From positions 1-64,000 of the forward strand of contig JBHLLT010000010.1 in NCBI GenBank assembly GCA_048938855.1: 64,000 nucleotides of DNA, given 5' to 3'. Each line of letters starts with the position of its first letter. Positions within the stretch are counted from its first letter, which is position 1. Below are positions 14,983-20,300 of this stretch, one piece after another. The notes beneath the pieces were generated by a model. That model made no database searches. It worked only from the letters and a program-made list of their open reading frames with translations, and was not told the origin of the DNA. The translations under genes and the position numbers were made by a program. Origin of the DNA: Promethearchaeota archaeon (GTDB lineage Archaea > Asgardarchaeota > Lokiarchaeia > Sigyniarchaeales > SOKP01).

Positions 14983-15900
14983 ATGTCTAATAATTATATT
15001 GAGGATTATATTAAAGCCGGAAAAGGAGTTATTGCAGCTAAAAAATTAGCTAAAAAAATTATCAAACCCGGGCAATTATTTCTAGAGATTGCAAATAAAT
15101 GTGAAGCTGAAATAATAAAAAGTGGATGTGAGTTGTCATTCCCTATAAATATGTCCTTAAATGAAGTTGCAGCTCATTATAGCCCTCCGATTGGTGATCA
15201 AACAAAAATTCCAGAAAAAGGATTACTTAAGATAGATATTGGTGCACATTTTAATGGATATATTGCTGATTCAGCCTTTACAATTAATATCGATGAGGAT
15301 CCAAAGTTACAAAATTATGTTGACGCAGCTAAAGAAGCACTTCAAGCTGCAATTGATATATTTAATCCAGGTGTTAAATTATATGAATTAGGTGAAGTAA
15401 TTGCGGAAAAAATCATTAATCGAGGCTTACGACCAATAACAAACTTAGGAGGTCATGAATTAAAACAATATAATCTCCATGCTGGACCTTTCATTCCAAA
15501 TTATAAAGAAAAAATGCATAATCAAATAATTAAAATTGGAGATGCTTATGCTTGCGAGCCATTTGCTACATCTGGAATTGGAAAAGTAGATAATGGAAAA
15601 AATTGGTTTATACTTCGTTTTCTGAAAAAAGTGAAAAAAAATATGTCTTATGAGCATCTAGCTTATATGGATAAGATTGAACAGAATTTCAAACAGCTAC
15701 CATTTTCCCCTAGATGGATAGAAAATAATCAAATTATACCTTCAAAAAAAATCCAAAGAACTCTTGAACTTTTTATTGGTAAAAGAATATTAGATAAATA
15801 CCATATTTTAATTGAAAAAACTAATGAACCCGTTGCACAAGAAGAACATACTATTGTAATTGATATGGATGGTAAAAAAATTGTCACTACTAAAGAATGA
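14983..15900 (+). CDS. map: Type II methionine aminopeptidase
   Basis: SFPINMSLNEVAAHYSP, KIDIGAHFNGYIADSAFT, NLGGH, EPFATSG, AQEEHT. Confidence 0.97.
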   Translation: MSNNYIEDYIKAGKGVIAAKKLAKKIIKPGQLFLEIANKCEAEIIKSGCELSFPINMSLNEVAAHYSPPIGDQTKIPEKGLLKIDIGAHFNGYIADSAFTINIDEDPKLQNYVDAAKEALQAAIDIFNPGVKLYELGEVIAEKIINRGLRPITNLGGHELKQYNLHAGPFIPNYKEKMHNQIIKIGDAYACEPFATSGIGKVDNGKNWFILRFLKKVKKNMSYEHLAYMDKIEQNFKQLPFSPRWIENNQIIPSKKIQRTLELFIGKRILDKYHILIEKTNEPVAQEEHTIVIDMDGKKIVTTKE

Positions 15901-16732
15901 TTTTAAAAAACAGTTATCTATTGTTATTTTATGTGCTGGAGAGGGGAAAAGACTTAAGCAAATTACTAAAATTTTACCAAAGCCATTAATAAAAATTGAA
16001 AATTTAAATAATATTTCAATTCTACATCATCTTATTAATAATTTAATTAAATTGGAGATTAATAATATTGGAGTAGTTATTGGACATTTAGGAACCTCAA
16101 TACACCAATTTATTTCAACGCTTGAGATAAATGAACCATCAATAAAAGCTAAAATAAATATAATTGATTCAGAGGATCAGTATAAATTAGGTCCATTATA
16201 CTCTCTTTTGTCAATAACAAAAAACAAAAATTTCTTTAAATCAAAAACTCATTATCTAATTCTTCCGGGTGATACAATATTTGGTTACAATTTATTAAAA
16301 GAAGTTTTAGTTAAAGTTTCTGATAGCTTTAACACTATCCAAAACTCACCTTTAGTTTTTTATAGAAAAATTGGATTCAAGAAATTGAAAGAAACATATA
16401 AGCTAAATAGAGTAATCTCTGTTGCTGATATTACAAAATTCGGTTCAGAAACCAAATTAAAAAGAATTTCTCATTTAAAATTAAAGGATATTCCATCAAA
16501 TGATATCATTTATCAATTGATTCCTATAATAATATTAAGCTATGAAAATATTAATGAAATCCACGAGTTAAATCAAAAAGTTCCACTAAATACTATTTGG
16601 AAAGCTTTAAATGAACTTAATTTCGAAGGAAAAAAAATATTTGCTTCTAAAATTGAAAGCAAATCTAATTTTTACGATATAGATTATAAAATTGATTTAA
16701 TGAACCTAAAAAAAAAAAGAAAAGGACAATAG
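15860..16732 (+). CDS. NTP-transferase (sugar-phosphate nucleotidyltransferase-like) protein; true start probably TTG 15881
   Basis: ILCAGEGKRL...LPKPL, PGD and DID motifs. The 3' end overlaps the terminator of the antisense candidate ncRNA. Confidence 0.75.
   Translation: MIWMVKKLSLLKNDFKKQLSIVILCAGEGKRLKQITKILPKPLIKIENLNNISILHHLINNLIKLEINNIGVVIGHLGTSIHQFISTLEINEPSIKAKINIIDSEDQYKLGPLYSLLSITKNKNFFKSKTHYLILPGDTIFGYNLLKEVLVKVSDSFNTIQNSPLVFYRKIGFKKLKETYKLNRVISVADITKFGSETKLKRISHLKLKDIPSNDIIYQLIPIIILSYENINEIHELNQKVPLNTIWKALNELNFEGKKIFASKIESKSNFYDIDYKIDLMNLKKKRKGQ
16708..16718 (-). terminator. Oligo(U)11 terminator of the candidate ncRNA
   Basis: A11 on the plus strand directly after the 3' strand of the closing helix. 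Confidence 0.5.
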
Positions 16733-17168
16733 GTGCTCCGATTATTCTATTGGTTCAAGGGAACTAAAGAATGGTAATCCATTGAAGCAATCACGGAATC
16801 AAAGCTCCTATTCATTTCACTGATTTATTGGTATTATGTTTTGATGTCTCATGTTTCAAAATTTATATCTTATATTCAACAAGAGCTCAAATTTTCTAGT
16901 TTTGTCATATACCAAAATCGTGTATAGTTAAATAATATAAACACCTGCTCCAAAGTGCCGATTAAAAATATGTTAAATATATGTATCGATGTCCTAAGCA
17001 CTAAAGGAACAAATAGACTAATTTTTGAGTGAAGTAAGGTAAATTTGAATCGAGGGATGTGAATCAAAAAAATGTCACAAATAAGAAAATGGTTTATTAG
17101 ATTGTAATCACTTAATCGGTGTAAAAACCGTAATTTTGTATCTAATTCCAATGCAAATTGTCCTTTTC
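16719..17168 (-). ncRNA. Candidate ~450-nt structured ncRNA of unknown family
   Basis: Perfect 12-bp end pairing (16719-16730 with 17157-17168), TATA at -31/-24, U11 tail, and about ten nested helices with most G-U pairs favouring the minus strand. Confidence 0.6.
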
Positions 17169-17191
17169 AACTTAATATATGATTATTTGAG

Positions 17192-17209
17192 TATTTAAAT
17201 CTTCTTATT
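17192..17209 (-). promoter_or_regulatory. BRE/TATA promoter of the candidate ncRNA
   Basis: Minus strand aataagaaga-TTTAAATA (17199-17192), 24 nt upstream of the closing helix at 17168. Confidence 0.55.
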
Positions 17210-17311
17210 AAGAGTTAAAATAGGTTCCATGGTATTTTGGACAAATTAATAACAATTTTTTGTATTTATTTAAAGAAATATAAATATCCGAAATGACATT
17301 ATTTATAAAAC

Positions 17312-17686
17312 ATGAGTATACCAATTAAGATTGAATTATTTGGAATTGGTACTATAGAAGGAAATATAATCCGACATATTGCCCCTCTTACTGCAGATGC
17401 TATAATTAGTAAATTGCCGCTTGTTTTAAGAGGACGATTTAGTTTTGGCTCAAAGAAATATTGGACATTGCCGGGAGTGGAAATATATAAAGGACCTAAT
17501 TCTAAATCCACAGATATTGTAGAAAAAGGAGAAATTCTCTATAATCCAAAAACCGATGAATTATTAATAGCTTTAGAAGATATTGAAATGGCAAACAAAG
17601 TAAATAAAATTGGAAAAGTAGAATCTAACCTTGAAATATTATTAAAAGCAAGAAATGGCTTGAATACAAAAATCATTAGAAAATAA
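17312..17686 (+). CDS. Cyclophilin-like fold protein (DUF369/TM1367-like)
   Basis: APLTADAI..KLP, KGEILYNP..DELLI and VNKIGKV pattern. Confidence 0.7.
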   Translation: MSIPIKIELFGIGTIEGNIIRHIAPLTADAIISKLPLVLRGRFSFGSKKYWTLPGVEIYKGPNSKSTDIVEKGEILYNPKTDELLIALEDIEMANKVNKIGKVESNLEILLKARNGLNTKIIRK

Positions 17687-17693
17687 CAAGATA

Positions 17694-18512
17694 ATGGCTA
17701 TTCCAAAGAAGTTAATGATTGTATTTACAGGATTTTATATTGCTGTAATTATCTATATACTTTTATTTCTATTTGTTCCAAGTTTCCAAGATTTTGTAAT
17801 CAATGCTAGACAAAATTTAACAATCATAACACAAGGTTCAAATTACTTTTGGGCACTATTTATTTCATTTGGGATATGTTTTTTGGGTTCAGCATCCATT
17901 GGATTCCCAATTCCTTTTCCATTTGTTTTGTTTTCACTTTCGAATTCAGTTTATCTTAAATATAATAATCTTGGATTAGAATTGCTGCAAATACTTCAAA
18001 ATGGTTTTTTTTGGCTAGAGATACTAGGATTGGCAATAGTAGGGGGATTAGGAAGCGTTTTAGGAGAATTTACAGGATATGCCGTTGGATATGGCACAAA
18101 AAAAATAGCTGAAGAAAGAAAATCTGATTTAGTTAAAAATGTTGATGGATTTGGAAAATTGGTATTAGAAAATAAAAAACGCACACCAATCTACATATTC
18201 TTGTTTGCACTGACTCCCCTTCCAGATGATATCTTATTCTTACCTCTTGGAATGATAAAATACCCTTTCTGGAAATGCATTATTCCTGGCTGGTTGGGAA
18301 AGAATTTTACGACTTTATTGTATTGTTTTTGGCCTATTTTAGTAGCCCTAGGTGCTCAAGGAATTCAAACTGATGATATTCCAAGCATAATAACAGAAGC
18401 AATATTACTTTTGGTTACAATAACAGTAATGTTTTTTATCATGTCATTTGATTGGTCAAAATACCTAAAGAAAAGGAGTCTTAGAAAGAAGGTACAGACA
18501 ATTACAGAATAA
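17694..18512 (+). CDS. VTT/DedA (SNARE-associated) family membrane protein
   Basis: GGLGSVLGEFTGYAVG, FALTPLPDDILFLPLG..KYPFWK, and multiple TM segments. Confidence 0.85.
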   Translation: MAIPKKLMIVFTGFYIAVIIYILLFLFVPSFQDFVINARQNLTIITQGSNYFWALFISFGICFLGSASIGFPIPFPFVLFSLSNSVYLKYNNLGLELLQILQNGFFWLEILGLAIVGGLGSVLGEFTGYAVGYGTKKIAEERKSDLVKNVDGFGKLVLENKKRTPIYIFLFALTPLPDDILFLPLGMIKYPFWKCIIPGWLGKNFTTLLYCFWPILVALGAQGIQTDDIPSIITEAILLLVTITVMFFIMSFDWSKYLKKRSLRKKVQTITE

Positions 18513-18694: not shown

Positions 18695-19018
18695 TTAAGT
18701 AATTGATTTAGTTTGAAGAGTAATTTCAATATTAGAAACTATTTCTTTCTTTTTGTTAAATTTATTAGTTCTATTCTGGTGTTTGTATGATCTATTATTG
18801 AAGTAAGGACGACTTCCCAGAGACACATTTGAGATTTCTAATCTAGGAAACATACGACTTTTCAAAATTTCAGCTACTTCTACCGCAGTACTGATTTCTT
18901 CTCCTTCACCCTTTATCAATAATGACTTTCTCCCCCCAGAAAATGCAAAAATTGCGTCTTTTATAGACTTGTCTTTATCATTTCTATGTTTTATTATAAT
19001 TGTAGTTTCATTAACCAT
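18695..19018 (-). CDS. Divergent Alba-family nucleic-acid-binding protein
   Basis: LLIKGEGEEISTAVEVAEIL...NVSLGS...VSNIEITL aligns to the Alba pattern (KARGxAISxAVDVAE...VSxIEI). ATG at 19018. Confidence 0.75.
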   Translation of the reverse strand: MVNETTIIIKHRNDKDKSIKDAIFAFSGGRKSLLIKGEGEEISTAVEVAEILKSRMFPRLEISNVSLGSRPYFNNRSYKHQNRTNKFNKKKEIVSNIEITLQTKSIT

Positions 19019-19169
19019 GAATATCAATAACCGTGAAAATTTTATACTTTTATTAAAAAGAAGCTATTTCTTAATAATCGTATTATATATATAAAATTTT
19101 ATTAACGTTTCTAATTTGATTATATCTTTTTATCTTTTTAAAGTTTGATAATTACTTAATATAATAAAA

Positions 19170-20300
19170 TCATCCAAATGCTTCTAAATCTAATTTCGAT
19201 CTTTTATTCAATTCATCTAAAATTTTAAAATATTCAGAACTTCTCTCTTCAAAATATTCAATAACTTTCCTTTCATCTGTGTCTAGATAGGAATAATATG
19301 GAAAAATAATATCAATACGCTTTGAAAAATCCTCCATTAATTTATCATACCATTCATTTGGTTTCTGTAATAAGCTTAGAATTTTTTTTGATAACTTTTT
19401 TCTTCTATTCTCATATTTTTCTTTATCATTTTTTCCAATCAATCCATCTAATTCATCATAAGCTGAAGCTATTACTTTTTCTATTTTTTCTCTAAATTTT
19501 GGTATACGATATGATTTTTTAAAAAATTCAGGATCCCACTCATATAAATACTTTTCATCATCCTCAGCGATATCCTCATCATCTGTAATAATAATATCTT
19601 CCTTAGGTACTAATATTAACCCATAATTCCTTTGTAACTGAGCTAGAGCTTTTTTTCGGAGAACCTCATCAATATATTCAATTTCTTTTAAAACCTTATC
19701 AATGTTTCTATTTACATCTTTTATAACCTTTTCAATTTTCTCAAGCATTTTTTTCTCTTCTAATTCACATTTCATTTCAATTAAATTATAAGATGAGGAA
19801 AGACCTAACTCAGGATCTTTTAATCTTAAACCTGCCATTCCTAGTACATGTTGACTGGAACCCTTCTTACAATGATCAAAAATTAACCCTACAGCGTAAG
19901 GATTAGGGATCTGATAACCGAGTTGAGTCATACAGTCGATAGGACTGTAAAAAAATCCAAATCCGGGGTGAGTGTGAAACCAACCTATAATAAAATCCTT
20001 TTTTTCGTCTTGAATAGATCGTTCATACACAGTTGCATCAATTTGAGACATATCAACATATTGTTTATTTTCGAATTGTACTCCTGCTCTACTGCCAACA
20101 ACCATCGGAATTGCGTCTTTCACGATCACTGTTGCATTTTCTTCAATAGAGCCCACTAATATACCATATACTTCACGCCACTTATCTGGATTTTGATTGT
20201 CATCAGCATACCTTATCGCATACCCCACAATCCTCTCATATGCTTTTACTGTTAATAATACCGGTGCGTGAAAGGGGTCAATTTTTTTACTTTTCTTCAT
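19170..20300 (-). CDS. MPN+/JAMM metalloprotease (Rpn11/CSN5-like) with long helical C-terminus
   Basis: EVYGILVG...GWFHTHPGFGFFYSPIDCMTQ gives an intact E/HxH/S/D JAMM motif. Confidence 0.9.
   Translation of the reverse strand: MKKSKKIDPFHAPVLLTVKAYERIVGYAIRYADDNQNPDKWREVYGILVGSIEENATVIVKDAIPMVVGSRAGVQFENKQYVDMSQIDATVYERSIQDEKKDFIIGWFHTHPGFGFFYSPIDCMTQLGYQIPNPYAVGLIFDHCKKGSSQHVLGMAGLRLKDPELGLSSSYNLIEMKCELEEKKMLEKIEKVIKDVNRNIDKVLKEIEYIDEVLRKKALAQLQRNYGLILVPKEDIIITDDEDIAEDDEKYLYEWDPEFFKKSYRIPKFREKIEKVIASAYDELDGLIGKNDKEKYENRRKKLSKKILSLLQKPNEWYDKLMEDFSKRIDIIFPYYSYLDTDERKVIEYFEERSSEYFKILDELNKRSKLDLEAFG

Follow-up and report, generated by a model that had tools for sequence, protein, structure and literature searches.

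Archaea have rRNA, RNase P RNA and SRP RNA as their large housekeeping RNAs with stand-alone genes. Among other RNAs, 7SK, 6S, CsrB and the Sm/Lsm-bound RNAs have paired or protected ends and separate protein-binding modules. In bacteria, OLE, ROOL and GOLLD are described as large orphan non-coding RNAs with ornate folds, and the kink-turn of OLE is reported to bind protein (PMC9723947; bioRxiv 10.1101/2024.12.08.627333).

Here we analyse a locus of an Asgard archaeon, inferred to be Loki-type, that lies within a 64,000-nt stretch of DNA, the whole of which is referred to as the window. An original prediction, made from the sequence alone, had inferred at this locus a large stable non-coding RNA (ncRNA) of unknown family, an inference that our analysis supports. 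Positions 17168-16719 of the minus strand are a real single-copy gene for a folded ncRNA of approximately 450 bases. Complete units were recovered from 98 genomes covering 13/13 genera of the host's family (f1), with lengths of 343-632 nt (median 482). The RNA is a new family without match to any described RNA family.

Comparison with known RNA kinds

The Rfam search that had been proposed as a check gave no real match for the host copy or for 14 divergent homologs, only chance hits, and no description of the RNA was found in the literature that was searched. The motifs that the original prediction had reported as missing (CR-I/CR-V, the SRP helix-8 motif, C/D boxes and a T-arm) were each detected in only 0-4 of the 98 homologs. 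Archaeal RNase P RNA (RF00373) and RNase MRP RNA (RF00030) resemble the ncRNA in several respects, including a stand-alone single-copy gene, a helix P1 closing a multi-arm fold, length-variable helices and a similar size. However, the ncRNA lacks CR-I (0/98 homologs), CR-V (pattern in 4/98) and the P4 pseudoknot motif (MRP P4 motif in 0/98), and no covariance model matches it: RF00373 had no match at the locus, which was also missed by a genome search with RF00030 at E values up to 10. An RNase P RNA gene is located elsewhere (C20:5911-6235, 135 bits). With archaeal SRP RNA (RF01857) the ncRNA shares paired ends, an own promoter and the layout of a stable RNA, but not the helix-8 loop with GNRA, which was found in 0/98 homologs. 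RF01857 gave no match at the locus, and a full-length SRP RNA match with the helix-8 loop lies at C70:155534-155862 (E 5e-16, 72 bits, below the gathering score).

Other known kinds of RNA were also searched for. The rRNA models did not match the locus or the 14 homologs; a 5S-like gene is found on C13, and the 23S rRNA of genome G065 is full length, leaving no gap for an rRNA fragment. As regards tmRNA, ARAGORN found none in the genome, the T-arm pattern occurs in 1/98 homologs and there is no conserved ORF. Indeed, the 91-aa ORF of the locus shows no coding conservation, in agreement with a non-coding unit as predicted: in the ten closest relatives, only 6-44 codons of it remain. As for box C/D guide RNAs, the C box was detected in 1/98 homologs. 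Concerning Y RNA features, the Ro60 protein (TROVE, PF05731) was not found in genome G000 or in two other f1 genomes, and the P1 core has no bulge. A reverse transcriptase (PF00078, RVT_1), the cognate enzyme of a telomerase, retron or DRT template RNA, was not found in G000 (97% complete) or in two other f1 genomes either.

OLE, ROOL and GOLLD are similar to the 350-630-nt ncRNA in size, ornate fold and unknown function. In contrast, the ncRNA is archaeal and AU-rich, its interior is far less conserved, it is found in one family only, and there is no sequence or model match. The paired or protected ends, U-rich tail and separate protein-binding modules of 7SK, 6S, CsrB and the Sm/Lsm-bound RNAs also have counterparts in the ncRNA, but the motifs and dedicated proteins of those RNAs are not shown here, and the U tract of the ncRNA lies in a hairpin loop and not between helices.

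Several observations were made on other structural RNA genes of family f1. The 5S rRNA gene appears to be circularly permuted (G000:C13:40715-40905, minus strand, locus L244; also L214 and L222-L233): the half from loop C to loop E precedes the rest, a 4-nt loop caps helix I, and the two ends are joined by an additional helix. Insertions in loop C or helix IV occur in some of the copies. The junction pattern of the permuted gene was present in 49/131 f1 genomes (six genera) and in 0/19 genomes of other families; the 5S model RF00001 gives only 28-31 bits on f1, below the cut-off, or no score, and f2 genomes are canonical. A permuted 5S rRNA has been described in brown-algal mitochondria (PMC4267664), and no archaeal report was found in literature searches. 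A link between the permuted 5S rRNA and the large RNA is not shown. In addition, a tRNA with a GAA (Phe) anticodon at G000:C49:244714-244820 (plus strand, locus L243), labelled tRNA-Ser(tga) by ARAGORN, carries an insertion in the D-arm region that is probably a non-canonical intron, and a tRNA-like sequence with a long insertion, probably intron-containing, lies near 244200-244330 of G000:C34 (minus strand). An 11-nt identity of the 5' motif of the ncRNA within the tRNA-Phe intron was considered as a target and is probably due to chance. In G000, whose 16S and 23S rRNA genes appear unassembled, ARAGORN calls only 13 tRNAs, one of them a tRNA-SeC(tca).

The RNA gene and its surroundings

The ncRNA (16719..17168, minus strand) comprises 450 nt plus a U tail, with predicted ends, and is supported by homologs and by RNA-library contigs inside the stretch. 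Its proposed promoter proved exact at the predicted positions: a TATA box at 17192..17199, 31 nt upstream of the start, is flanked by a purine-rich BRE-like element at 17200..17206 (both on the minus strand), and the first G corresponds to 17168, near which the start had been placed. The BRE-like element is read from the sequence, and TATA-flanking positions are conserved in alignment A1. The spacing of the TATA box is fixed in 98/98 homologs, with the first paired base 29-32 nt away (the detector allowed 27-33). The 12-nt paired ends followed by U11 were also confirmed. The two arms of P1, at 17157..17168 (5' strand) and 16719..16730 (3' strand), are perfectly complementary (12/12), and the terminator-like U11 tract occupies 16718-16708 (minus strand). 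A U-rich tail follows P1 in the homologs, with the caveat that the U content of the tail also served as a detection criterion.

The unit had been described as complete within the gap between its two neighbours, which holds for all but its 3' end: the last 14 nt, including the 3' strand of P1, and the U tract overlap the final codons and stop of the NTP-transferase ORF. This NTP-transferase-family gene (15860..16732, plus strand; PF00483, E 1.6e-9) converges on the 3' end of the RNA and is given as context, no partnership being shown. On the other side, a divergent cyclophilin-like gene (17312..17686, plus strand; PF18050, E 6e-6) is likewise context. The RNA unit lies downstream of truD, aspS and map. 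The NTP-transferase gene adjoins the RNA in most genera but not in g12; in g17, the RNA has no cyclophilin-like gene beside it and does not overlap any coding DNA, and both the TATA box and the P1 helix are still retained. Thus, coding does not explain the conservation of the helix, and, since the neighbours vary in g12 and g17, the RNA is the constant element of the locus. A 17-nt inverted repeat with a 10-nt spacer is located at 16630-16673, within the NTP-transferase ORF and approximately 35 nt past the U tract. An Alba gene and a gene encoding a JAB/MPN-domain protein are found in 18695-20300, 1.5-3 kb from the RNA, with no link shown.

The comparison of folding energy with shuffled sequences, also proposed originally, gave a minimum free energy of -89.8 kcal/mol for the minus strand (z = -2.9; 0/100 shuffles as good). 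The plus strand folds about equally well (z = -2.6), and therefore folding energy cannot assign the strand. The assignment to the minus strand is based on the fixed TATA-to-start distance, the U tract and the wobble pairs: across homologs, the P1 core contains 16 G-U cells and zero A-C cells, and U-G pairs conserved in the 3' hairpin point in the same direction. Folding z-scores of the homologs span -0.9 to -3.6, and the G+C content of the RNA is close to the genome mean of 30%.

Words of the unit are contained in 17 RNA runs, one of which covers more than half of it. Four RNA runs from four studies, chosen because the stretch was present in them, were mapped onto 15200-18200. A contig of 246 nt from run X1 is identical to 16901-17146, one of 236 nt from X2 shows 10 differences, and X6 and X15 yielded contigs of relatives, mostly <95% alike, with a depth of up to 610. 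One X15 contig stops following the locus at 17168, where it passes into sequence similar to the interior of the RNA itself, which hints weakly at the 5' end. Contigs of this kind indicate presence in RNA libraries, never strand, ends or level. With regard to the discrete minus-strand species to be looked for in RNA-seq data, they give the presence of the sequence but neither its strand nor its ends. The flanking genes had no RNA contigs in the mapped runs, which carries no evidential weight because these runs were selected for containing the RNA stretch. The runs with only a small share of the unit that were not mapped were likewise left out of the evidence.

Conserved frame and variable arms

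Homologs were recovered by locating the neighbour genes across the order, fetching the intervals between them and detecting units in these intervals. The homologs are usually convergent on the same NTP-transferase gene, and BLAST found the RNA in 23/24 genomes of the host genus. This syntenic comparison, suggested with the original prediction, revealed loci that are conserved and covarying across f1, the largest family of the class (134/160 other genomes compared). In families f2-f7, neither the cyclophilin-like nor the NTP-transferase loci yielded the RNA, and it was not found in the single-contig f2 genomes presumed to be the cultured strains. In f2-f4, model R1 gave promoter-level matches only, but no more than 148 candidates were scored out of as many as 14,000 in a genome; a loose pattern outside f1 occurred at control level, with two candidates lacking the terminal helix. 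The RNA is thus 'not found', rather than 'absent', outside f1, as these searches are weak for a diverged RNA.

Other elements were observed at loci of this type. In family f2, a short cysteine-rich zinc-ribbon-like ORF takes the place of the RNA downstream of the NTP-transferase ortholog at L110-L113, and a tRNA with a CCU anticodon is found at the locus of this ortholog in G038 and G053. Downstream of an NTP-transferase-like gene, G051 (L116) has a 21-nt unit repeated in tandem, along with an assembly gap. Genome G113 carries its full RNA at L052 and, upstream of a cyclophilin-like gene, a second locus (L051, C87) with the promoter and only the 5' ~150 nt, without U tract, which is either a shortened copy or contamination of the bin.

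In the 9-bp core of P1, double-sided changes across genera are firm at 5/9 pairs (positions 1, 2, 4, 6 and 9). Positions 1, 2 and 9 each change from G-C to A-U, position 4 from C-G to U-A, G-C and A-U, and position 6 from A-U to G-C and U-A; positions 5 and 7 exhibit one-sided changes only. In the host's clade, P1 has been re-formed in a shifted register, using the start of the U tract. The sequence of P1 is itself conserved, beyond pairing alone. Directly 3' of P1, a signature motif, (U)GCA(U/A)UGG(W)(W), at 17146..17155 (minus strand) is present in 95/98 homologs; within CA(U/A)UGG, the C, the A and the first G are invariant in the 95 carriers, and CATTGG is the most enriched 6-mer of the family. 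According to a FastTree phylogeny of the 3' part, the 5' CAUUGG domain has been lost three times independently in g1 (L028; L032; L138 together with L151), with P1 and P4-P6 kept. In several g1 members, the GG of the motif has a potential pairing partner within P2. A pairing of the motif with CCGA of P3 was considered and rejected: some lineages would allow it, but it is in competition with the P3 hairpin and does not work in the host's clade.

The interior helices, all given here on the minus strand, were evaluated by counting paired cells in 11 close relatives (74-100% identity), and most of those originally proposed are kept. The P2 domain (17096..17146) is formed by attagat/atctaat (73/77 cells paired) and encloses the cggt/accg hairpin at 17117-17130 (43/44); its register differs in more distant relatives. 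P3 (17058..17079) is a hairpin formed by tgtga/tcaca (54/55) with a U-rich loop (U7 at 17066-17072). Its stem sequence has been fully replaced between lineages, whereas pairing and the U-rich loop stay. A run of five or more U at nt 80-150 is present in 81/98 homologs, and g13 and g18-g20 have no U loop. The AU7G tract suggested as an Sm-binding site does exist at 17073-17065, but it forms a hairpin loop. It is thus not the single-stranded RAU4-6GR between two helices that defines an Sm-class snRNA, and the strict RAU4-6GR pattern occurs anywhere in only 26/98 homologs, so that the Sm proposal is only partly borne out. Sm-like genes number three or four per genome, without binding data.

P4 (16946..17011) is a long irregular hairpin whose proposal stands for the inner stem (55/55 cells) but less so for the outer stem, whose register varies (47/66); P4 is absent from some short homologs. 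The helix ttcact/agtgaa, which had been thought to close a multiloop, is paired in only 34/66 cells and remains unsupported. The P5 arm (16828..16915), which includes ttggtat/ataccaa (65/77 cells) and for which 69/77 paired cells are also recorded, is kink-turn-like, with tandem G-A pairs (16877-16876 with 16857-16856) and a GAGACA motif (16850-16845). GAGACA-like motifs were found in 41/41 g1, 26/27 g14 and 5/6 g16 homologs; a strict kink-turn-like pattern was found in 20/98 homologs versus 2% of shuffles, and it is absent from several genera. A box H/ACA guide RNA has a hairpin with a pocket and a kink-turn, followed by a single-stranded ACA ~14 nt from the pocket; P5 contains both a kink-turn-like loop and an ACA, but these are only ~8 nt apart, inside a longer helix, and there is no model match. 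The branched 3' domain predicted beside P1 corresponds to the P6 hairpin domain (16731..16812), which has conserved U-G and U-U pairs. Its outer helix is paired in 95/99 cells of the close relatives and in 95% of cells over 26 sequences from 3 genera, with changes that are mostly one-sided wobble; in these 26 sequences, double-sided changes do not exceed the shuffle control. RNAalifold recovered little from cross-genus alignments, as the interiors align poorly across genera. Whole arms are optional, gained, lost or sequence-swapped while the frame stays.

Possible function of the RNA

We tentatively favour, without being able to show a partner, the interpretation of the RNA as a stable modular scaffold or sponge that binds proteins; this function is inferred. 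The RNA would be the stable core of a ribonucleoprotein, rather than a message, a ribozyme or a mobile element, and would act in the modular manner of 7SK, 6S, CsrB or OLE RNA. P1 and the U tail may protect the ends and form a handle read by protein, a role suggested for P1 by the conservation of its sequence and not of its pairing alone. Sm-like (SmAP) rings could bind to the U-rich P3 loop and the tail, L7Ae could bind to the tandem G-A loop of P5, and further proteins might be accommodated by the U-G/U-U helices of P6 and by the CAUUGG module, with no binding data for any of them. The likely effect would be the storage, sequestration or assembly of bound proteins. This interpretation is based on the rigid frame, the dispensable modular arms, the features of protein-binding type, the presence of Sm-like genes and the lack of a catalytic motif or RNA target; the optional arms, the 343-632-nt range and the losses of the CAUUGG domain are easier to reconcile with a modular scaffold than with a catalytic core or a single guide. 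Nevertheless, the scarcity of the strict kink-turn-like pattern, the lineages without U loop, the P6 covariation at control level, the ordinary G+C content and the weak z-scores of some homologs all count against it, as does the near-invariant single-stranded hexamer, which is also expected of a guide RNA.

The latter possibility, a trans-pairing guide or RNA chaperone in which CA(U/A)UGG pairs with another RNA (the NCCA end of tRNAs or a pre-rRNA site) and the remaining fold binds processing proteins, is conceivable, if clearly less probable. The UGGN of T-box antiterminators pairs with the NCCA end of tRNAs, and in the 95 carriers four positions of the motif show little or no variation, with CATTGG heading the enriched 6-mers. 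However, no shared target site was found in the 16S 5' part, 23S or rRNA flanks of the same genomes, the complements of the motif in G000 intergenic DNA look like chance, and a motif query of small RNAs in G000 gave no partner; moreover, the motif has been lost three times and its GG can pair in cis within P2 in several g1 members. Descent from RNase P/MRP (or SRP) RNA, as a diverged and possibly permuted paralog that has lost its motifs and retains a catalytic or targeting role, would account for the similar layout (own promoter, P1, variable arms and U tail), and family f1 appears to tolerate permuted structural RNA genes, as seen for 5S rRNA. This origin is very unlikely in view of the absence of CR-I, the MRP P4 motif and the SRP helix-8 loop from all 98 homologs, the lack of an RF00030 match at the locus even at E up to 10, and the presence of RNase P and SRP RNA genes elsewhere.

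In most genera the RNA converges on the NTP-transferase gene, and in many it overlaps the stop of this gene, a position that could also suggest antisense or terminator-level regulation of the convergent aspS-map-NTP-transferase genes. Such regulation is improbable, as there is no overlap in g17, the NTP-transferase gene is not adjacent in g12, and antisense action needs no conserved 350-630-nt fold. Similarly, sequence-conserved terminal inverted repeats flanking a variable AU-rich interior are what a domesticated or fossil non-autonomous element (MITE or IS remnant) would leave, its repeats mimicking P1. We give hardly any credence to this origin: the unit occurs in one copy and at the same site across 13 genera, as the original prediction required of a unit that is not a MITE, its TATA spacing is fixed, departures from P1 pairing are G-U and not A-C, and no transposase is encoded among the neighbouring ORFs examined. 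An active mobile element is largely refuted.

Beyond the modular scaffold itself, a speculative and rather unlikely extension is an Asgard-specific large RNP, in which a dedicated RNA bearing a short recognition motif is the scaffold for Sm-like rings and L7Ae. It would be the prokaryotic counterpart of eukaryotic particles of the snRNP, 7SK or MRP type and might serve the family's unusual RNA processing (permuted 5S rRNA gene, intron-bearing tRNAs). Because it has been found in a single family, the RNA may have originated within that lineage rather than being an ancestor of a eukaryotic RNA. The deletion variants without the CAUUGG domain (L028, L032, L138 and L151) are useful for spotting a co-lost partner protein. 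A further single-copy large RNA throughout f1, visible in sediment metatranscriptomes, means a new RNA class close to the eukaryotic lineage, and offers a concrete object for asking whether the Sm-like and L7Ae proteins of Asgard archaea form snRNP-like particles.
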